The position numbers were made by a program, and so were the translations under genes. Of a DNA stretch of 64,000 nucleotides, positions 26,962 to 38,760 are shown in pieces (within the stretch, counting starts at the first letter, position 1; each line of letters starts with the position of its first letter). The stretch spans positions 5,280,001 to 5,344,000 of the forward strand of contig OY969763.1 in the NCBI GenBank assembly GCA_963702845.1. Reading direction: 5' to 3'. The notes below the pieces were generated by a model, which did not search any database, was not told the origin of the DNA, and worked only from the letters and a program-made list of their open reading frames with translations. Source of the stretch: an uncultured Verrucomicrobiae bacterium (GTDB lineage: Bacteria; Verrucomicrobiota; Verrucomicrobiia; Limisphaerales; Palsa-1400).

Positions 26962-27546
26962 ATGTCTGAGAGCCTATCCTTCGGCAGTCACGAGTACCTG
27001 CTGATGTTGGGTTTGCTCTTCTTCGGTCGCAGCATGGACTTCTTCAGCACGTGGGTGGCGACTCCAAATCTCGCGCTGGAAGGGAATCCCATCGCAAAAA
27101 AACTCGGATGGCGTTGGGGCGTGTTGCTCAACATCGTGCTCTGCGTCTCATTTGCGCACTGGCCGCTGACCGCTGTTATTATTACCACCACCGGCCTGCT
27201 CGTCGCCGCGCGGAACTTTCATTCCGCCTGGTTGATGCGATCGATGGGAGAAGAAGGCTATCGGCTTTGGTATTCTGAACGCATTTCCAATACGCGGCTA
27301 CGGCTCGTCATCTTATCGCTTCTTGGCGAGACGGTTCTGACCGCCATCGTCGGGGTTGCGCTGCTCTACTTCAGTCCGCTGGATTCACTCCCGAGTGCGA
27401 TTGCTTTGGGGATTATCGCATACGCGATCGTGGTTCTGTTCTACACATCGCTCTCACTTTGGCGCACACGTCGGTTTCACCGTCGCTTCCGCGTCGCGGC
27501 GCACGACGATCATTCCGACCCGATGCGATCGGGACCTCCAGATTAG
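26962..27546 (+). CDS. hypothetical membrane protein
   Basis: Several TM segments; D..STW...EGNP motif. Confidence 0.75.
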   Translation: MSESLSFGSHEYLLMLGLLFFGRSMDFFSTWVATPNLALEGNPIAKKLGWRWGVLLNIVLCVSFAHWPLTAVIITTTGLLVAARNFHSAWLMRSMGEEGYRLWYSERISNTRLRLVILSLLGETVLTAIVGVALLYFSPLDSLPSAIALGIIAYAIVVLFYTSLSLWRTRRFHRRFRVAAHDDHSDPMRSGPPD

Positions 27547-30500
27547 TTGCCTTGCAACAGAACGCTCCCGCTTTGGTTGGTGCCGAGGAAATAACCGCGT
27601 GCTTCGTTTTGATTTTGTAAAATTACTCCGTTGAAGGTGGTGAAGCGTAACGTTACCGGTGCTGTGAAATGGCTGCCAGTGAGCAGGCCCTTGGTTTTAT
27701 CGAGCAGGAGCGTAGTTGAATTCGCACCGGTGACAACGGTGGTGTTATTCGAATTGAGCACCACGTTGTTCGTGAAGCCTTGAACCAGGTTCGCGCCGTT
27801 AAACGCAAGAGTGCCATTCGTAAAATTCAACACGCGCACGCCATTGCTCGGGGTAATGAACGATGAACCGACCAGCGGCGTGTTCAACGTGAATCCATTC
27901 GAATACAACGCCGTTCGCATCGATGGCTTAATCCATGTTGCATCGCCGCCGAGGGTGTTCGCGGGCAAGTTGCTGAAAGTCACCTCGCTGAAAATCATTC
28001 CTTTGCTCGCGTACAACGGCGCAAAGAGAGGCCAGACGCCATTTTTGGAAATGCTGACGGTTTGGCTCAACAGTGTGCCGTCGGCCATGCTGCCCGACGC
28101 CCGGATCATGCCGGCGTTGTCGATCGTCAGCGTTGCGTAGCTGTCGCCTTCAGGCGCGGCAGTGGGTTCGGTGTAACCGAGGATTGCGAGCGTGTATTTG
28201 CCAGCAAAGTTGGTCGCTTTGTTTTTCACCAGGTCGAAAACAGCGCGATCCAACGTGAACGCGGAAATCCATGAACCGTTGGAAACGGTGCCAGGGATGG
28301 TGTCGTCGGGTGTGGCAAGGTTGAGATGCGTCGCCACGACTACGCTGTTGGTCCGCAAGCGGGCGATGGTCAGTTGGCTGTTGCCGTACAAATCAAACTT
28401 TCCGCTCAACGTATAAGCAACACCATCAAGATTCATTCTGCCGACATACGTGCCGCTACTCGCCAGAGTCAGCGTAATAAAACCGGCGCTGGATTGGCGC
28501 ACCGCGTCCGACTCGCGAAACAATCCGTTGTAAACGCCTTTGATCGGGATGAACGGATTCGTCACGAAATTGCCGTTCAAGACCATGTTCGGTTGCATGA
28601 GGAAATTTAGGACGGCAGCGTTCGAGCTGATCGTTCCGTTCCAATTTGAAAAAACCCAGTTGTTCGATGGCGTTCCGGTGATTGTATAGCGACGACCGAT
28701 TTCCAAAAATTTGCCGTTCAAATCAGGCGTGATTTTGCCAAGGCCGTTCGTCGTAACTGTGAGCACGTTTGTGACGACGTAGAAAAAGCTACGCGAAACC
28801 GGGAGCGACGTTTGCAGCCCGAACCCGATCGCACGCGCCGTGATCGTGTTCGTGCCGGCAATCAGCGTCAGCGGTGCAGACCAGTTGGTTATCCCCGTGG
28901 CTGTTTGCCAACCGGAGTTGCCTGACGAATTCTGCAGCTGATATTCCACATGGTCGACCTGCACGTCGTCCTTCGCGGTGCCGGTAACAGTGACGTCGGC
29001 CGTGAAAACACGTGCATTCGCCAATGGCGCGGTGACGGCGACGGTCGGGAGCTTCAAATGTTGCAAGACGACTTGGTCGACCCATCCGGCATCGCGTCCG
29101 AAGCTGTCGCTACCATCTTTGGTGTAACGCCATTGGATCGAGTGCGAACCCGAAGGAATGAAGAAAGCCTGTTGCGACCAATCGGCTGCACCGCTAATCT
29201 GATTTTGGTCAACGTCGTCGACGGAGAATGTCAGCAAGTCCAAGGTAGGTTCGGAATCACATTTCCACCAAAACGTCAGGCGCGCCGGGCCAGCGACCGT
29301 TCCCTGCAAATACGTCGATTGATTATCGGTAATGCCGCCGCTTTGCGCAGCGTCGCTGCCATCGTGAGTCGTGCCGGGTTGCCAAAACCACTGATTGTCG
29401 CCACCCGTAGTCCAGTTGACCGTCGTCGCGTCGAGCGCTTCGCCCAGACTCGGCGGCACACGAAAAGAGGTCAGCTTAGCCGTGGTGTTGTTGATTACTT
29501 GTGCGTTGTTGTTGCTGCTGGTGCCTGTTGCAACGGGGCCGCTTCCGTTGTCATAGAATACGTTGGGGTTCGAAAAATGCGGTACGCGTTGAGAAATGTG
29601 AGCAACGGCCGTCATCACCGTTTCGTGGTTTGAAGTATCCGGTGACTGGAAAAAATAAGCGTGTGCGTATGGATACAGCGGATTTGACGCCGAATATTGC
29701 GGCTCGTGATCGCATCCAAAATTGTGCCCGATTTCATGCACGGGAATATAAGTCCCGACAGCGCGCGGACGATAGATAACGTTGTAAGTGTAGATGGTAG
29801 AACCGGGCAACAATTGGTAAGCGAGGCCGGCAAGCGAGCCGATAGTTTGCTCCACCCAAAGCGAAACAATGTCGGCTTTATATTTGTCGCGAGTGACGAG
29901 CGCGTCATCCATGAATCCGTCGCTGGGATTTCCGAGACGATCAAGGTCGGTGTTGAAGTCGCCAGTTTCGGTGTAGCTGGTTTCCTCCGTGTGAACCAAA
30001 CGCAATTGGAGATTTACCTGGCTGTTGTCCAAAGCGTCCTGACCTTCCGCTAGAGCGACTCTGATCTGGCTGTTGATCGCGTCTTCGCCGCCCGCGTTAC
30101 TCATCGCGGTGGCTGTGTAAATCACCATTATATCCAGATTTGTTTTTGCGGGAATCGCGTTCGCGGAAATCCTTGCTACGGCGCGAGGTTCGTTTGGAGG
30201 AGTGGCTCCCGGTAGCACAGGTGCGATGGAACTCGGCTGCGTGCTGTAAATCGGAGTGGGCGGAGTTTTGCCCTTGATCCCGCACGTGGCGACCGCCGTC
30301 GAATCCACTTCACTCAGGTAGTGAAGATCGCCACTCGCAGTCGCAATTTTAAAGAGCCGACCATTCCCAGTGCGGTAAGACGCCGTAAACGCCCCGTTTT
30401 CGCGCGCGAGAATCATGTAATTCCACGGCTTGCCCGGCACGGAGCAGCGGATGACGAATGATTTGAATTGCCCGAGGTGATCGTTGCTTTGTCGACGCTC

Positions 30501-30849: not shown

Positions 30850-31866
30850 TTACTCGACTACCACGGTCTCGAGTTTCTCGATTTTGCGGCGCAATTTCGC
30901 CATCGCCATTTCTTGAATCTGGCGGATGCGTTCACGCGTGACACCGAATTCTTCGCCCAATTGCTCGAGCGTTTTTTCATCAGTGCCACCGAGGCCGAAG
31001 CGCTGGCGCAAGATCGCTTGCTCGCGCACATCAAGACTCGGCAACAAATCATGAATCAAATTCACGTTCGTTTTGCCTTCCAGATCCTGGTAAGGCGTGC
31101 CGGCGTTCGCGTCGGGCACGATGTCGGCGATCTTCGCTTCGTCGCCATCCGAGATGGGAGCGTCGAGCGACTGCGGGCGCACGGACGCCTTGCGATATTG
31201 CGAGACGCGGCGCGCCGGCAAGCCGACTTCCGCACCCACTTCTTCATCCGTCGGTTCGTGGCCGAGGACGTCCTGCAACTTCGCTTCAGCGCGGCGGATG
31301 TGCAGCAACTTATCGACAACGTGCACTGGCAAACGAATGGTCTTCGATTGGTTCGCGAGCGCGCGTTTGATCGCTTGCTTGATCCACCAGGCCGCGTAGG
31401 TCGACAGCTTCGCACCCTTATTCGGGTTAAAACGTTCCACGCCCTTCATCAAGCCAATGTTGCCTTCGTTGATGAGGTCGAGCAGCGGGACGCCATAATT
31501 CTCGTAGTCGCGAGCAATCTTCACGACCAGGCGCAGGTTGGCCTTGATCATTTGTTCGCGCGCGGCTTTGTCGCCTCTGCGGATGCGTTTAGCGAGGTCG
31601 ATCTCTTCCTTTTTGGTCAAGAGCTTGGTCTCGCCGACTTCGCGCATATACAGATTATAGGCGTCGTGCGAATAGCTCGCGTCCGGGACCTCACTGGGTA
31701 AGGGGCGACGATCCGCGTGCGCCGGTTTTTCGACGACCGCGACGTTTTCGGTTTCAGTTTTCGGGGACCTGTCTGCAGCCAGAGCGGCGCGCGGGGTTCG
31801 TCGCGCCCTACCGACCGGGTTCAAGTTCCGGGGTGTGCTCAACTTCGTTTTCATAATCTTATTCAT
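30850..31866 (-). CDS. RNA polymerase sigma-70 factor, paralog of 17552..18730
   Basis: LYMREV, ANLRLVVKIARDYENYG, GVTRERIRQIQ; AGGAGG Shine-Dalgarno. Confidence 0.93.
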   Translation of the reverse strand: MNKIMKTKLSTPRNLNPVGRARRTPRAALAADRSPKTETENVAVVEKPAHADRRPLPSEVPDASYSHDAYNLYMREVGETKLLTKKEEIDLAKRIRRGDKAAREQMIKANLRLVVKIARDYENYGVPLLDLINEGNIGLMKGVERFNPNKGAKLSTYAAWWIKQAIKRALANQSKTIRLPVHVVDKLLHIRRAEAKLQDVLGHEPTDEEVGAEVGLPARRVSQYRKASVRPQSLDAPISDGDEAKIADIVPDANAGTPYQDLEGKTNVNLIHDLLPSLDVREQAILRQRFGLGGTDEKTLEQLGEEFGVTRERIRQIQEMAMAKLRRKIEKLETVVVE

Positions 31867-31891: not shown

Positions 31892-34800
31892 TCATTTAGA
31901 AGAAACTGGGGTGAACTCTGAAATTTTTGCAACCAACTGGCGCTCACTCCAACCGCCACCTAAGGCTTTAATCAGTTGAACGGTAGCAACTTGGCGCTGG
32001 CCGATGAGCAAGGCATTTTGGCGTTCGGATTGCAGGGCTTCGCGGCTGGCATCAACCACATCGAGGTAATTGACAATGCCGGAGCGGTAACGTTCAGTTG
32101 CCAGTTCAACGGCGCGATTGGCGTTTTTGACCGCGCGTTCCTGGGCTTCCGATTGCTGGGCTAAAAAGTGAAGGCCACTCAAGCTGTTCTCCACATCGCC
32201 GAACGCAACGAGGATGCGTTGGCGGTAGTTAGCGATCGCTTCCTGATAAACAGCTTTCGAACGTTGCAAGTTCGCGCGATTGCGGCCACCGGCAAAAATC
32301 GGCAGCGAAATGCTCGGACCGATCGACCACGTGTGGCTGTCCCAATTGAACAGCGTATTGATATCGCCGCTGAGAAAACCACCGGAGGAGGTCAGCGTGA
32401 TGACAGGAAAAAATGCAGCTTTCGCAACGCCGATGCGAGCATTGGCGGAAGCGAGAGCGCGTTCGGCTTCGGAAACGTCGGGACGACGTTCCAAAAGTTC
32501 TCCTGGCAACCCGGCGGGAATCGTGGGCGGAATCGGATGCCATTTGGGATCATTCAACGTCGCGATTTTGAAATTGGACGGATTCGAACCGCTCAAAATC
32601 GCGATCGCATTCTCCAGTTCCGCGCGACGTTTCGCGATCGCTGCGTAGTCAGCTTCAGTGGTTGCCAACTCAGTCTCTGCACGCGAGACGTCGAGTTCAT
32701 TGCCGATGCCGCCTTCAAAACGGCTCCGCACGAGTCGCACCTGCTCTTTACGCAAATCGACGGTGCCGCCAACGGTCGCCATCTCCGCATCGAGCGCGCG
32801 CAGCGTGAAATAATTTTCCGCTACGTCGGATTCGAGCGTGAGCATCACGTTGTAATAGTTCGCGAGCGCAGATTGCGCATCCGCGCGTGAGCTTTCAAAG
32901 CCACGGCGGACGCGTCCCCACAAATCGATTTCGTAACTCAGGTCGAGCGGCGTACTGAACGTATTTGCAGTGATCGCGCCAAAGCTTGGGTCTGCGTTGG
33001 GCGAATAACGTTGGCGGTTCCAACTGGGGTCCAGTGATAACGTCGGCATCAAATCGCCGCGAGCCACACGCGCGGTCGCGCGGGACTGGTCAACACGAGA
33101 CACAGCTGCACGCAGTTGTTGGTTCGCGCCGAGCGCTTTCGATTCGAGTTCGTTCAGCTTCGTATCGCCGAACACTTCCCACCAGTTACCTTTCGGCACC
33201 GTGTCGAGCGGTTGGCCTTGTTTCCAGGAACCAAGTTCTTCTGCTTTATAAGCCTGCGGCGCGGGTGTAGCCGGTTTTTTGTAATCAGGACCGACTTTGA
33301 ACCAGCCCGCGTGGGCTGACGAACTGGAGAGCATCAACGCGATGATCGCGATACCTGTCGCCGCAGCCGCGCCACCGAGAATCGGTTTGTGCGCAGGTTT
33401 GTGCGACCAGCCGAGCTTCATCAACACGACATAAAACACCGGCGTTAGGAACAGGCCGAACAACGTCACGCCAATCATTCCTGAGAATACGGCGACGCCC
33501 ATGGCCTGGCGCATTTCAGCACCGGCTCCGCGCGCGACGACGAGCGGGAATACACCCGCGATAAACGCAATGGACGTCATCAAGATCGGGCGCAAACGCA
33601 AACGGCACGCTTCGATGGCCGCATCAAATGGCGTCATGCCGTGGTCTTGTTTTTGTTTCGCAAATTCGACGATCAAAATCGCGTTCTTACACGCTAGTCC
33701 GACGAGCACGATCAAACCGATCTGCGTGAAAATGTTGTTATCACTGCCTTTGAGCCACACGCCCGCAATCGCGAACAGCAAGCACATCGGCACTATCAGG
33801 ATGATCGCGAGCGGAAGTCGCAAGCTTTCGAACTGCGCCGCGAGCACGAGGAACACCAGCAGGAGACAAAGCGGATATATATAGATCGCCGTGTTGCCCG
33901 CGAGGATTCGTTGATAGGTCAAATCCGTCCATTCGTATTGCAGCCCTTTCGGCAATTTGTCGTCCATGATTTTGCTCATGATCGCTTCGGCCTGTCCGGA
34001 ACTGTAACCGGGCGCGGGTCCGCCGTTCAGTTCGGCTGCGGGATAGCCGTTGTAACGCGTGGCCCGATCAGGACCGTGCGTTTCGTTCACGCGCACGAGC
34101 GTCCCCAACGGAACCATCTGGCCTTTTTCATTGCGGGTTTTCAGGCGCGTGATTGCTTCGGGATGTTCGCGATATTGTGAGTCCGCTTGCGCAATCACTT
34201 GATAGGTGCGGCCGAAACGATTGAAGTCATTCACGTAGAGCGATCCCAAATAGATCTGCATCGTGTCGAAAATATTCTGCAGCGGCACGCCTTGTTGTTT
34301 CGCTTTCACGCGGTCCACATCCGCATCGAGCTGCGGAACGTTGACGGTGTAAGTCGAGAACGTTCCGGCAAGTCCAGGCGTCTGATAACTTTGCCCAACG
34401 ATTTGTTGGATTGTTCCAAACAGCGCGTCGCTCCCGAGATCTGCGCGGTCTTCAATGAACAATTTAAATCCACCAATCGCGCCAATGCCCATGACAGGCG
34501 GCGGCATGACGGAGAGCACGAACGCTTCCTGGATGCTGCTGAATTTTTGGTTGAGCGCGGCCGAGATCGCCGGGCCGCTCAAGTTTTCCGTTGTTCGGTC
34601 ATCAAACGGTTTCAAACAGAAGAATACGATGCCCGCATTCGGAGCGACGCTGAATCCGCTGATGCTCAAGCCAGGGAAAGCAACGGCGCTTTCCACGCCG
34701 GGCGTTTGCAGACCAAGATCTGACATGCGACGAATGACGGCTTCAGTGCGATCCAGCGATGAACCGTCAGGCAATTGCGCGAACGCGACGAGGTATTGCT

Positions 34801-36529
34801 TGTCCTGTGTTGGCACAAAACCGGTCGGAACTTTGTTGAAGCTCCAGCCAGTGAGCACAACGAGCCCCGCGTAAACGACGAGCGCGATAGCACTTTTGCG
34901 GAGGACACTGCCCACGCCGGCAGAATATTTATCGCCAGCCCATGCAAACACTTTGTTGAACGGGCGGAAGAACCAACCAAGCACGCGGTCCATGACGCGA
35001 CCAAACCAATCTTTCGGTGCGTTGTGGTCCTTAAGCAACACTGCGCACAACGCCGGCGAAAGCGTCAGCGAATTGAAAGCGGAAATGACTGTCGAAATCG
35101 CGATCGTGATTGCGAACTGCTTATAGAATTGGCCGGTTAAACCGTTGATGAACGCCGTCGGCACGAATACCGCGCACAAAACCAGCGCCGTCGCGATAAT
35201 TGGATTCGTTACTTCGCTCATCGCGCGTTTAGCTGCATCAGTGGGCGACAACCCAAGCGCGATATTGCGCTCCACGTTTTCGACGACAACGATGGCGTCA
35301 TCGACGACAATACCAATCGCCAACACCAATCCGAACAACGTCAGGTTGTTGATCGAGAAACCAAGCCCGAGCATCACGGCGAACGTTCCAACCAGTGACA
35401 CCGGCACAGCAGCAAGCGGAATGAGCGACGCGCGCCACGTCTGCAAAAAGAGAATCACGACTAGAACAACCAGCAGCGTCGCCTCGAGCAATGTGTGGAC
35501 GACGGCCTCGATTGAGTGCCGCACGAATACAGTCGGGTCGTAAACGACGGCGTAGTCGATGCCATCAGGAAAGCCCTTCTTCAACTCGTCCATTTTCGTG
35601 CGGACATCTTCCGAGAGCTGAAGCGCGTTGGCGCCCGGCGTTTGGAAAATGGGCAACGCTACGGCGGACTTGTTGTTCAACAACGACCGCAATGCGTAAC
35701 TGCCCGCGCTCATCTCGACACGCGCCACATCCTTGAGCACCGTCTTCTCGCCGTTCGGACCGGTCTTGACGATGATTTGTCCAAATTCCTCAGGCGTAAT
35801 CAAACGGCCTTTGGTGTTGATCTGATATTCGAAATTCACCGGATTGCCGACCGGCTGTTGGCCGATCGCACCAGCGGCGACTTGCACGTTCTGCTCGCGA
35901 ATCGCGTTCACCACGTCGCTCGCCGTCAAATTGCGCGACGCGACTTTGTCCGGATTGAGCCACACGCGCATGGCGTAGTCACCAGACCCGAACACTTCCA
36001 CGTCACCCGCGCCAGGAATACGCGCAAGCGAGTCTTTCACCTGCAACGTCGCATAATTGCGCAGGTAAACTTCGTCGTAGCGTCCATTCGGCGAGAACAA
36101 ATGCACAACCATTGTCAGGTCGGGCGATTGTTTGAGCGTGGTCACACCAAGCCGGCGAACTTCTTCCGGCAACTTAGGCAACGATTGCGAGACGCGGTTC
36201 TGCACCTGCACCTGCGCTTTGTCGATGTCGGTGCCGAGTTTGAACGTGATGGTCAACGTCATCACGCCATCGCCCGTCGCCTGCGAATACATATAGAGCG
36301 AGTCCTCAACGCCGTTGATTTCCTGCTCCAATGGTGAGGCGACTGTTTCCGAAATTGTTTTCGGATTTGCGCCCGGATACATCGCGCGCACGACAATCGT
36401 CGGCGGCACAATTTCGGGATATTCACTGATCGGCAATCGCTTCACCGCGATCAAGCCGACCACGAAAATTAAAATCGACAACACACCGGCAAAGATCGGT
36501 CGTCGAATAAAGAAATGAGAAAAATTCAT
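31892..36529 (-). CDS. HAE1 RND efflux permease (MexF/OqxB-like) fused to a NodT/OprM-like outer membrane factor
   Basis: FIRRPIFA, GIVVDDAIVVVEN, KNAILIVEF, RLRPILMT; then VGPDY, WWEVFGD, EIDLWG, LERRPDV, ALGGGW in one frame. Confidence 0.92.
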   Translation of the reverse strand: MNFSHFFIRRPIFAGVLSILIFVVGLIAVKRLPISEYPEIVPPTIVVRAMYPGANPKTISETVASPLEQEINGVEDSLYMYSQATGDGVMTLTITFKLGTDIDKAQVQVQNRVSQSLPKLPEEVRRLGVTTLKQSPDLTMVVHLFSPNGRYDEVYLRNYATLQVKDSLARIPGAGDVEVFGSGDYAMRVWLNPDKVASRNLTASDVVNAIREQNVQVAAGAIGQQPVGNPVNFEYQINTKGRLITPEEFGQIIVKTGPNGEKTVLKDVARVEMSAGSYALRSLLNNKSAVALPIFQTPGANALQLSEDVRTKMDELKKGFPDGIDYAVVYDPTVFVRHSIEAVVHTLLEATLLVVLVVILFLQTWRASLIPLAAVPVSLVGTFAVMLGLGFSINNLTLFGLVLAIGIVVDDAIVVVENVERNIALGLSPTDAAKRAMSEVTNPIIATALVLCAVFVPTAFINGLTGQFYKQFAITIAISTVISAFNSLTLSPALCAVLLKDHNAPKDWFGRVMDRVLGWFFRPFNKVFAWAGDKYSAGVGSVLRKSAIALVVYAGLVVLTGWSFNKVPTGFVPTQDKQYLVAFAQLPDGSSLDRTEAVIRRMSDLGLQTPGVESAVAFPGLSISGFSVAPNAGIVFFCLKPFDDRTTENLSGPAISAALNQKFSSIQEAFVLSVMPPPVMGIGAIGGFKLFIEDRADLGSDALFGTIQQIVGQSYQTPGLAGTFSTYTVNVPQLDADVDRVKAKQQGVPLQNIFDTMQIYLGSLYVNDFNRFGRTYQVIAQADSQYREHPEAITRLKTRNEKGQMVPLGTLVRVNETHGPDRATRYNGYPAAELNGGPAPGYSSGQAEAIMSKIMDDKLPKGLQYEWTDLTYQRILAGNTAIYIYPLCLLLVFLVLAAQFESLRLPLAIILIVPMCLLFAIAGVWLKGSDNNIFTQIGLIVLVGLACKNAILIVEFAKQKQDHGMTPFDAAIEACRLRLRPILMTSIAFIAGVFPLVVARGAGAEMRQAMGVAVFSGMIGVTLFGLFLTPVFYVVLMKLGWSHKPAHKPILGGAAAATGIAIIALMLSSSSAHAGWFKVGPDYKKPATPAPQAYKAEELGSWKQGQPLDTVPKGNWWEVFGDTKLNELESKALGANQQLRAAVSRVDQSRATARVARGDLMPTLSLDPSWNRQRYSPNADPSFGAITANTFSTPLDLSYEIDLWGRVRRGFESSRADAQSALANYYNVMLTLESDVAENYFTLRALDAEMATVGGTVDLRKEQVRLVRSRFEGGIGNELDVSRAETELATTEADYAAIAKRRAELENAIAILSGSNPSNFKIATLNDPKWHPIPPTIPAGLPGELLERRPDVSEAERALASANARIGVAKAAFFPVITLTSSGGFLSGDINTLFNWDSHTWSIGPSISLPIFAGGRNRANLQRSKAVYQEAIANYRQRILVAFGDVENSLSGLHFLAQQSEAQERAVKNANRAVELATERYRSGIVNYLDVVDASREALQSERQNALLIGQRQVATVQLIKALGGGWSERQLVAKISEFTPVSSK

Positions 36530-36566: not shown

Positions 36567-37745
36567 TTAGTTTCGTTTCGCGACTTTGGTTGCGTCGGTG
36601 GATTCCGCGACCTGTTCCTGCGGCGACACCGGCATGCCGGGACGCACACGTTGCAGGCCGTTTACGACGATCTTTTCGCCCGGCTGCAAACCGGCGCGAA
36701 TAACGCGCATGCCGTTGATGACTGGACCAAGCTTCACCGCGCTATAAGCAACAGTGTTCGATGGCGTCAGTGTCAGCACGTATTTCTGCGCCTGATCGGT
36801 GCCGATCGCCCGTTCGCTCACGAGCACCGCTGGATGTTTTTCGCTCAACGGCACACGAATGCGCGCAAACAATCCGGGCACAATCCGACCGTCCGCATTA
36901 TCAAACACCGCGCGCAGCAAAATGCTTCCGGTATTCGGATCGAGTTTGTTATCGAATGATTCGATATGGCCGCGATGCGCGAAACCGTCCTCGTCGCCTA
37001 ATTGCAGTTCGACCGGCACTTTGCCGTCGGCATCTAAATCGAGTTTTTTGGTCACCGCGAGGGTGTTGTATTTGAGCAATGTAGCTTCATCGACGTCCAC
37101 GTAGACGTAAACCGGGCTGACCGACACAATGGTGGTGAGCATGGTCGATGCGCCCGCGATGCCGCTGACGTAATTACCTTCCGTCAACAACGCGCGGCTG
37201 ACACGGCCATCGATCGGCGCACGAACCTGCGTGTAATCAAGGTCGAGTTTCGCGAAATCACGCGACGCTTCGGCCGAAAGCAACGCCGCTTTGGCCCCAT
37301 TGAAGCGAGCAATCCGAGCATCGGATTCTTCGGTTGAAATCGCCTTATTCTCGAGCAGTTGCGCACTGCGATCGGCTTCGCGTTTCGAATTTTCAAACTG
37401 CACTTTGGCGCGTTCGGCGTCGGCGGCGAGTTTGTCAAATTCGGCCTGGTGCCAACGCGGATCGATCACGAACAACGCGTCGCCTTTTTTAACCAACTGC
37501 CCGGACTGAAAACGGACTTCCTGGATATAGCCGGAAACGCGCGGCCGCACTTCAACGGAGCTCACCGGCTCAGTGCGTCCGGTGAATTCGTCCCATTCGA
37601 CGACTTCCTGTTGTTGAACTGGCGCGATCGTGACCGCTGGGGCCGGCATTTGTTGTTGTTGCGGCGCATGCTGGTTGCAACCTGTGACAACCGCGGCGAG
37701 TCCGCCGATGGCAATAGCTGTAGCGAGTATGAACTTTTGTTTCAT
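36567..37745 (-). CDS. RND efflux periplasmic adaptor (MFP) lipoprotein
   Basis: VTGC lipobox, EVRPRVSG, RAPIDG, PGLFAR. Confidence 0.93.
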   Translation of the reverse strand: MKQKFILATAIAIGGLAAVVTGCNQHAPQQQQMPAPAVTIAPVQQQEVVEWDEFTGRTEPVSSVEVRPRVSGYIQEVRFQSGQLVKKGDALFVIDPRWHQAEFDKLAADAERAKVQFENSKREADRSAQLLENKAISTEESDARIARFNGAKAALLSAEASRDFAKLDLDYTQVRAPIDGRVSRALLTEGNYVSGIAGASTMLTTIVSVSPVYVYVDVDEATLLKYNTLAVTKKLDLDADGKVPVELQLGDEDGFAHRGHIESFDNKLDPNTGSILLRAVFDNADGRIVPGLFARIRVPLSEKHPAVLVSERAIGTDQAQKYVLTLTPSNTVAYSAVKLGPVINGMRVIRAGLQPGEKIVVNGLQRVRPGMPVSPQEQVAESTDATKVAKRN

Positions 37746-37763: not shown

Positions 37764-38090
37764 TTAGTCGCGCGCAAAAACGTTGCGGCGTGCGTTGTTA
37801 CGGACCTGCCGCTGGTGGGCCGCCCAATTCGCGACCGAGGTCGCTTTCTCTTGTGCGAGCGTGGGGAATACGAGATATGGAAATTCCGTATCCCATGCGA
37901 TTGCTTCGGCTTCATTGACGGCCAATTGCAGCATGTGTTCGCGTCCTTTCAAGGCAGCGCTGAACTCCGCGATGACGTTGGCCTTGGCCTGTTCGATGCG
38001 GCCTAACAGTTTCTTGCACGCCGCAATGCAAATTTTGGTGAACCCACCTGTTTTCGAGGTTGTAGTTCTCGTCTGATATGTCGTTTTCAT
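37764..38090 (-). CDS. hypothetical protein (LAVNEAEAIAW..FP.L..EK motif)
   Basis: Fills the tetR-MFP gap on the same strand; helical. Confidence 0.75.
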   Translation of the reverse strand: MKTTYQTRTTTSKTGGFTKICIAACKKLLGRIEQAKANVIAEFSAALKGREHMLQLAVNEAEAIAWDTEFPYLVFPTLAQEKATSVANWAAHQRQVRNNARRNVFARD

Positions 38091-38145: not shown

Positions 38146-38760
38146 TTAAGCCGCCGCCATCGTCGCGCTCTTTACGCCGAGCAACGCCGAAATCCCGCTA
38201 AACCCGTCGCGCAGAACCTCCACCGTGTTCTGAATCCGTGCCTGGGTCATTAAGCCGTGCAGATATATCTGCAACATCCGTGCTTTCGCGTCCGCATCGG
38301 GCGCATCAATCAATCCTTCCGCATGCGCGTCGCGGATTGCTGACTCCAAATACTTCCGCTGTTGATCAAAAATCTGTTCAATCCGCTCGCGCAGTTTCTG
38401 CTCCTGCGTGCTGACTTCCGAACCCAACGTGCAGAGCGGACACCCTAGCACGGACCCGTATTTCGCCTGCATTTCAATCTGCTTTTGGTAACCGAACTCG
38501 CAATACTTGCGGATTCGGTCCAGAGGCGGGACGGTAGCTGAAAAGATTTTGTCCATCTCCACCTGTTTTTTTCCACAGCCTACATCGAGAGCGGCGACGG
38601 CCAGATCAGCCTTTGATTCGAAAAAATAATAGAAGCTGCCCTTCTTCACCTCGGCTTTATCACAAATCTGATCGATCGTGGTGCTGCCGTAGGATCCGGT
38701 CCAGATCAGTTCTAAAACCGCATCCATCAACTTCTCTTTAGCATCGCTAACTCGGCCCAT
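38146..38760 (-). CDS. TetR/AcrR-family regulator (NemR/LmrA-like)
   Basis: HTH TIDQICDKAEVKKGSFYYFFESK; GCP motif. Confidence 0.93.
   Translation of the reverse strand: MGRVSDAKEKLMDAVLELIWTGSYGSTTIDQICDKAEVKKGSFYYFFESKADLAVAALDVGCGKKQVEMDKIFSATVPPLDRIRKYCEFGYQKQIEMQAKYGSVLGCPLCTLGSEVSTQEQKLRERIEQIFDQQRKYLESAIRDAHAEGLIDAPDADAKARMLQIYLHGLMTQARIQNTVEVLRDGFSGISALLGVKSATMAAA

Follow-up and report, generated by a model that had tools for sequence, protein, structure and literature searches.

How an inner-membrane efflux pump and its outer-membrane channel can both come from a single gene is the question raised by a locus of an uncultured Verrucomicrobiae bacterium (GTDB lineage Verrucomicrobiota; Verrucomicrobiia; Limisphaerales; Palsa-1400). 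We analysed 64,000 nucleotides of its genome (assembly GCA_963702845.1, contig OY969763.1, positions 5,280,001 to 5,344,000 of the forward strand); this whole stretch is called the window, and coordinates refer to it. One gene on its minus strand encodes, in a single reading frame, an entire HAE1 RND pump (MexF/OqxB-like) together with an entire NodT-type outer-membrane factor (OMF). Comparison with relatives indicates that the product is most likely a single precursor: signal peptidase I would cut it behind Ala1074 and so free an OMF that has no lipid and starts GWFKVGPDY. The parts of the gene are the following.

31892 to 36529, minus strand: fused RND-OMF open reading frame, 1545 residues (translation, Pfam, NCBIfam)
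33413 to 36529, minus strand: HAE1 RND permease part, residues 1-1039, 12 membrane helices (NF000282 and TIGR00915 over cut-off, hydropathy, motifs)
33419 to 33421, minus strand: codon of Met1037, end of the pump's last helix, an unlikely start (model, unfused tails, start-context score)
33383 to 33412, minus strand: basic cytoplasmic loop, predicted to act as n-region, residues 1040-1049 (at least three Lys/Arg in all linkers, disordered in the model)
33326 to 33382, minus strand: 13th hydrophobic helix, putative h-region, residues 1050-1068 (hydropathy, model, uncharged in 106 of 106 linkers)
33308 to 33316, minus strand: Ala-His-Ala, predicted signal peptidase I site, cut after Ala1074 (conservation at -1 and -3)
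31895 to 33307, minus strand: predicted mature OMF, residues 1075-1545 (471 residues), starting GWFKVGPDY, no lipidated Cys (TIGR01845 over cut-off)

A whole pump and a whole channel in one frame

Translation from 36529 to 31892 runs in one frame, with the sole stop at the end, and the junction reads TPVFYVVL-MKLGWSHKPAHKPILGGAAAATGIAIIALMLSSSSAHA-GWFKVGPDY, with no stop or shift. A preliminary description of this DNA had proposed a pump and an OMF joined in one polypeptide of about 1545 residues, and the translation and the two whole domains bear this out. ACR_tran covers residues 3-1036 (model positions 1-1020 of 1021) and scores 1174.7 bits in Pfam against a cut-off of 28, and the RND family models TIGR00915 and NF000282 score 1167.8 against 940.35 and 1455.4 against 1250, respectively (whole-chain scores; the matched stretch is 3-1039). 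Twelve strong hydropathy peaks precede residue 1037 in the 1+5 pattern that RND proteins show twice, and a 13th follows at 1050-1068; two weak peaks, at 621 and 670, fall in the RND periplasmic domain. The pump motifs VVDDAI (at 408), CKNAIL (at 947), and RLRPILMT (at 978) are present and hold what we take, by AcrB, to be the proton-relay residues, that is, the Asp-Asp pair of helix 4, the Lys of helix 10, and the Arg and Thr of helix 11. On the OMF side, the NodT model TIGR01845 matches residues 1079-1526 (12-460 of 460) with 422.5 bits against a cut-off of 210.05 in NCBIfam, and Pfam finds two OEP stretches, while the match to the TolC-type model TIGR01844 stays below its cut-off. We built an AlphaFold2 model of residues 877-1545 (mean predicted local distance difference test value [pLDDT], 86). 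In Foldseek its OMF part reaches template modelling (TM) scores of 0.80-0.83 to OprN, OprM, and CusC, and the closest solved relatives of this half, both by sequence and by fold, are OprM, CusC, OprJ, and OprN.

Distribution of the fusion

In a homologue search in which 8000 proteins were scored, with lengths of 849-2704 only and a design that favoured fused forms, all of the 120 best matches listed carry both PF00873 and PF02321, and they come from four or more sources. For the linker we used 121 proteins, of which 115 were parsed and gave 106 distinct linkers; five of the six unparsed proteins show the same linker design. About ten of 33 proteins with both domains (P0149, P0200, P0202, P0207, P0213, P0226, P0228, P0239, P0242, and P0263) were left unused, as their scrambled linkers or internal Met look like frameshift artefacts. 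The preliminary description had called for full-length homologues with both domains and an alignment of their linkers; the best matches listed are of this kind, and the linker design is conserved.

We also searched 251 genomes drawn evenly from the order with a 200-residue junction query, which 51 of them match at an E value of 1e-40 or better. Fifty of the 52 matches were examined at the locus: three have a stop, four are unparsable fragments, and 43 are fused (43 genomes, the window's included). Because the query favours fused forms, this count sets a minimum for presence and gives no ratio of fused to unfused forms. The same-genus genome G002 has the same linker (L082). Had all close homologues been separate genes with a lipobox, the fusion would have been in doubt; instead, 35 of the 43 fused linkers lack one. 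The same doubt would have followed from a stop or indel in reads across the junction. Two DNA soil runs (share 0.05) yielded only contigs, none spanning the whole gene, and one of these equals 33198-33422 with 0 differences and covers the region where unfused relatives have their stop, although it may not be independent of the assembly.

Anatomy of the linker

After helix 12 the RND C terminus is cytoplasmic, and therefore helix 13 would run from inside to outside. In the model the last RND helix (1004-1039) is followed by a disordered loop and by a separate helix at 1055-1068 (pLDDT of about 59), which lies unpacked between two confident domains; the chain is disordered around Ala-His-Ala-Gly and then enters the confident OMF. 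In the window's protein the helix has a hydropathy of 2.07 over 19 residues. All 106 linkers have at least three Lys or Arg residues in the loop (mean, 4.4) and a helix free of Asp, Glu, Lys, and Arg. Position -1 is Ala in 105 and Gly in 1; position -3 is Ala in 95 and otherwise Thr, Val, Ser, or Met; and position -2 is Lys, Gln, His, Asn, or Arg in 92%. The Ala at -1 is more conserved than any column of the h-region. Small residues at -1 and -3 with a free -2 are the pattern of signal peptidase I, and the distinct linkers thus combine the basic n-region, uncharged h-region, and small -3 and -1 of a Sec-dependent substrate of this enzyme. The signal departs from such substrates in its place, as it begins after residue 1039 and not at the N terminus of the chain.

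The start of the OMF is equally constant. The motif G-P-[DN]-Y is kept in 106 of 106 linkers, and a Cys lies within five residues of GPDY in only 1 of 106, without a lipobox. The preliminary description had noted an absent lipobox Cys and a present Ala-X-Ala at the junction, and both observations are correct: the linker of the fused gene has zero Cys, and Ala1072-His-Ala1074 lies at 33316-33308. When the sequence alignment with OprM is extended, the lipidated Cys1 falls on Phe1077, so that Phe occupies the place of the lipid anchor; in the two columns at this place, 80% and 83% of the residues are bulky and hydrophobic. The OMF also differs from an OprM-type lipoprotein in that it has no gene of its own but is in frame with the RND part, with no start context at the linker Met residues. 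The absence of Cys is special to the fused OMF, because each of the three other NodT-type OMFs found in the same genome has its own gene and a lipobox Cys immediately ahead of VGP[DN]Y. One fused relative, L012, has about 70 low-complexity residues inserted right after VGPDY.

Lipobox and Ala-X-Ala linkers in fused and unfused relatives

Eight of the 43 fused linkers of the order sample carry a lipobox. In a tree of 40 of these 43 proteins, built from pump and channel sequence with the linker excluded, the linker type changes 5 times, and well-supported branches require at least three of these changes, including one on a distant pair. Neither peptidase motif would be necessary in a plain membrane anchor. 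The linkers of L143 and L145 have a Cys plus the GPLT or GVLT extension typical of the Cys-free type and are possible intermediates.

Unfused relatives provide a second line of comparison. In 20 of 110 loci a pump that we judge orthologous, because the TetR regulator and the adaptor are common to both, ends in a stop and is accompanied by a separately encoded OMF, which has its own Met and a signal with Ala-X-Ala and no Cys. In L157 the separate OMF is 60% identical from residue 1075 onward and has a short signal, Met...SIVA followed by GPLTIGPDY. Lipobox-bearing fused and Cys-free unfused forms both occur, so Cys loss and fusion are not coupled. Taken together, the fixed -1 and -3 with a free -2, the interchange with a lipobox, and the free-standing Cys-free OMFs support a cut by signal peptidase I and a nonlipidated OMF, as the preliminary description had proposed.

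Fused relatives at 50% clustering are mostly of the lipobox type; they include Acidobacteriota, Kiritimatiellota, and Muribaculaceae, among others, and differ in RND subfamily. A cultured bacterium with a fusion of the lipobox type is Kiritimatiellota B12222 (WFB35000.1). Their OMFs are scattered among separate OMFs in a tree, and the several places at which fused OMFs stand therefore point to more than one fusion origin. In P0295 (cluster of P0136) an MdtB/MdtC-like RND protein, a subfamily different from the window's, is fused to a lipobox OMF, which suggests that this type of fusion is independent of ours.

The join also appears to have been lost again. In L010 (5480-5745), from Pedosphaera, the RND protein keeps the basic loop, the helix, and AHA and stops soon afterwards, and the locus holds no OMF match; this is a relic of the fusion. 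In L093 (674-1470, genome G045) the RND protein keeps the linker helix, which is followed by two small open reading frames on the opposite strand and then by an OMF with a new start and a lipobox; this OMF pairs with the fused lipobox protein P0125 (tree support, 96). One of the small frames has a LVTGDKDLL motif, which we take to be PIN-like, and the pair is likely a toxin-antitoxin system. On this evidence at least two lineages have undone the fusion.

Proposed processing of the precursor

The starting point is what can be observed: one reading frame, two whole domains, and a conserved linker anatomy. From there, helix 13, running from inside to outside, would reopen Sec translocation and thread the OMF into the periplasm. 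Signal peptidase I (LepB) would then cut between AHA and GWFK, giving a pump of 1074 residues, which would keep the spent signal helix or have it trimmed off later, and an OMF of 471 residues. More tentatively, the unlipidated OMF may reach the outer membrane along the TolC path, by chaperones and the beta-barrel assembly machinery (BAM) or the module for translocation and assembly (TAM) and not by Lol. Trp-Phe sits where OprM has its lipid anchor and may partly stand in for the lipid. LepB and BamA are encoded in the genome. PMC13082787 describes unlipidated TolC as functional, and PMC4446572 gives a pump stoichiometry of 3:6:3. Three pumps, three OMFs, and six separately encoded adaptors would thus form an ordinary tripartite pump under TetR control, in which the two parts needed in three copies share one gene and the six-copy part is separate.

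That the fusion gives 1:1 synthesis of pump and channel, as the preliminary description had held, follows from the fusion itself. It need not be the purpose of the fusion, because orthologous operons work unfused and the join has been undone (L010 and L093). It is also conceivable, if on balance unlikely, that the precursor is an assembly device, in which cleavage lags behind trimerization of the pump and each RND trimer gathers three OMF protomers and releases them together at the site that requires the channel. How three TolC-type protomers are delivered together is a question posed in PMC13082787.

Several points weigh against the proposed processing. The cut is inferred from comparison, and the 106 linkers come from proteins that are 73-90% alike over the searched region and are not independent observations. 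Some linkers fit less well (ARG followed by G in L147, LHA followed by ST in L138), and scoring linkers simply for the presence of small-X-small near VGPDY does not discriminate, as 34 of the 35 Cys-free linkers and all 8 with a lipobox have it. The low pLDDT of the linker may merely reflect shallow alignment depth there. One tree places the lipobox forms closest to the Cys-free clade (support, 91) and another has Cys-free rows at its base, so that these trees do not fix the direction of the switch. Across three quick trees, one of which left out 16 loci (15 near-copy Pseudomonas and Caulobacter rows and the window's own), the labels cluster and the order of fusion and Cys loss is likewise not fixed. 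Finally, PMC13082787 reports that OprM assembly is independent of BAM, and for this reason any route named for an unlipidated OprM-type OMF is a guess.

Alternative explanations

The preliminary description had offered, as an alternative, an internal restart at the Met at 33421. Initiation at Met1037, or at Met1066, would make a separate pre-OMF and most of the channel, the full-length chain being a by-product. Met1037 is shared by 104 of the 106 linkers, and the 38 residues after it form a complete signal-like sequence; the database call for a close relative, P0298 (480 residues), starts at a Met matching 1066. Met1037, though, is also found in 35 unfused RND tails, where no OMF start is possible, and in the model it lies within the last RND helix; its conservation is therefore explained by the pump. 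P0107 and P0111 have Ala in the 1037 column and no other Met before the h-region. In a start-context matrix trained on this genome (held-out area under the curve, 0.77, with a rough heuristic for the training starts), the percentile among starts is 0 for Met1037 and 3 for Met1066, against 37-96 for five neighbouring real starts, and 17 of 18 fused loci score below zero. Met1066 has only nine residues before the site, too short for a signal, and stands at that column in only 4 of 106 linkers. Without a stop codon, moreover, the full-length pump would still carry an OMF needing removal. The restart is thus a poor candidate, and we regard it as very unlikely. A Shine-Dalgarno test of it is uninformative, because first ATGs in this genome pair with the anti-Shine-Dalgarno sequence no better than internal ATGs do (18% versus 17% at -5 kcal/mol or lower; no enrichment). 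P0298 itself was rejected as a separate OMF of a close relative, as it has no usable signal and looks like a truncated call.

Another possibility is that the chain is cut by a rhomboid, RseP-type, or periplasmic protease, or that recoding sometimes yields a pump without the OMF. Intramembrane protease substrates are often rich in Gly and Ala, as helix 13 is, and LepB cleavage inside a 13-helix protein would be unusual. The fixed -1 and -3 pattern and its exchange with a lipobox nevertheless indicate the two signal peptidases. As for recoding, no conserved slippery site for a programmed frameshift was found among the 43 linkers: a -1 slippery heptamer occurs in 2 of 43 and an A/T run of 7 or more in 1 of 43, and neither in the window. 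Both variants seem highly improbable.

The fusion could also stay uncut, with the OMF tethered by helix 13 and reaching the outer membrane on an unfolded N-terminal arm, so that pump and channel would be covalently joined. About 40 low-confidence residues lie between helix 13 and the first core helix of the OMF, which fully extended could measure up to about 150 Å by arithmetic, and the insertion of L012 lengthens this arm. The span that tip-to-tip pumps require exceeds that length, and the G-P-[DN]-Y motif, which follows the lipid anchor in OprM-type proteins and is invariant here, suggests that the arm packs near the outer membrane. An uncut anchor also fails to explain why a peptidase motif always stands at the end of the helix, and we consider this arrangement very unlikely.

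That an assembly error or a recent read-through mutation made the join can be dismissed: several other RND genes of the same genome are fragmented and the assembly may hold indel errors, but both domains occur together in the best homologues listed and in the fused loci across the order, and G002 has the same linker. The fragmented RND genes lie near 3.04, 3.13, 5.23, and 5.38 Mb, each broken into at least two frames, and a LepB copy is split as well; indel errors or pseudogenes would account for them.

The locus and related systems

Signal peptidase I processing of the precursor would supply two parts of a tripartite set, and the third, the adaptor, is encoded in the same locus, giving adaptor, inner-membrane pump, and OMF together. 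The genes ahead of the fusion are these.

38146 to 38760, minus strand: TetR-family regulator, first gene of the locus (Pfam TetR_N and TetR_C_13)
37764 to 38090, minus strand: open reading frame of 108 residues between TetR and adaptor (no Pfam or NCBIfam match)
36567 to 37745, minus strand: periplasmic adaptor (MexE/OqxA-like), separate gene, predicted lipoprotein with VTGC (TIGR01730 over cut-off, best MexE model)

A TetR homologue (43-69% identical) lies upstream in 29 of 80 loci, both fused and unfused, and a homologue of the 108-residue frame stands at the same place in 7 of 80; this frame also has a weak paralogue elsewhere in the genome. A sigma-70 family gene (30850-31866, minus strand), RpoS/RpoD-like but below the equivalog cut-offs, starts 26 bases after the fused gene; only one of the 80 loci (L002) has a homologue behind the fusion. 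Further on, 27543-30440 (minus strand) encodes a reprolysin-like M12 metallopeptidase of 965 residues with Ig-like domains. Promoter and terminator scans found no more than in shuffled sequences.

MexEF-OprN of Pseudomonas, OqxAB, BpeEF-OprC, and AdeFG show the same order of adaptor, RND protein, and OMF behind a regulator. The best NCBIfam models, OqxB and MexE, score below their equivalog but above their subfamily cut-offs; the RND piece of the model is 66-72% identical to OqxB, BpeF, and AdeG, and the OMF matches the folds of OprN, OprJ, CusC, and OprM. In the proteobacterial loci of the MexEF-OprN/OqxAB type, the RND protein and the OMF have a gene each, and the latter is a lipoprotein made from a start of its own, whereas the window has one frame and a Cys-free OMF. 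Closer to home, an unfused operon of Prosthecobacter and other Verrucomicrobiales (L005-L030 and L036) shares the TetR (at the identity given above), adaptor, and RND genes, an RND tail of TPVFYVLxMKLGxKK, and an OMF with a Cys-free Ala-X-Ala signal. It differs in a stop after the RND tail, a separate OMF start, and a mature OMF beginning Q[IV]GP[DN]Y without the Trp/Leu extension.

For the processing, E. coli TolC is a partial parallel: it has no N-terminal lipid, is released by signal peptidase I, and works unlipidated (PMC13082787). It belongs to another OMF subfamily (about 19% identity) and has an N-terminal signal and its own gene. Bradyrhizobium FbcH is a cytochrome b fused to cytochrome c1, according to PMC4013037. 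Like the gene described here, it joins a polytopic inner-membrane protein to an exported partner. FbcH is reportedly cut at an internal signal sequence and is the nearest processing precedent; both of its products stay in one complex in the inner membrane, whereas the second product of the window's gene would be destined for the outer membrane.

Meaning of the fused family

The component parts are ordinary. No description of an RND-OMF fusion was found in the open-access main texts that we searched, among them the first part of PMC8277102 and PMC7015380, PMC10872679, PMC11213822, PMC13082787, and PMC4446572; JGI names already give both families on these proteins. Genes of this kind are otherwise named RND permease only, so that genomes seem to lack the channel. 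If the precursor acts as an assembly device, it would answer for this fused family the question of how three protomers are delivered, and the switch between lipobox and Ala-X-Ala would show that the hand-over works by Lol or by a lipid-free route. Should the cut be real, one chain would yield a protein for the inner and another for the outer membrane through an ordinary signal peptidase acting on a signal that follows twelve helices, a way of building the envelope that we have not found described for efflux pumps. The fused family offers natural test pairs, with pumps fused or unfused and channels lipidated or unlipidated, which make two questions testable: the reason for the lipid on OprM-type channels and the joint delivery of three channel subunits to the outer membrane.

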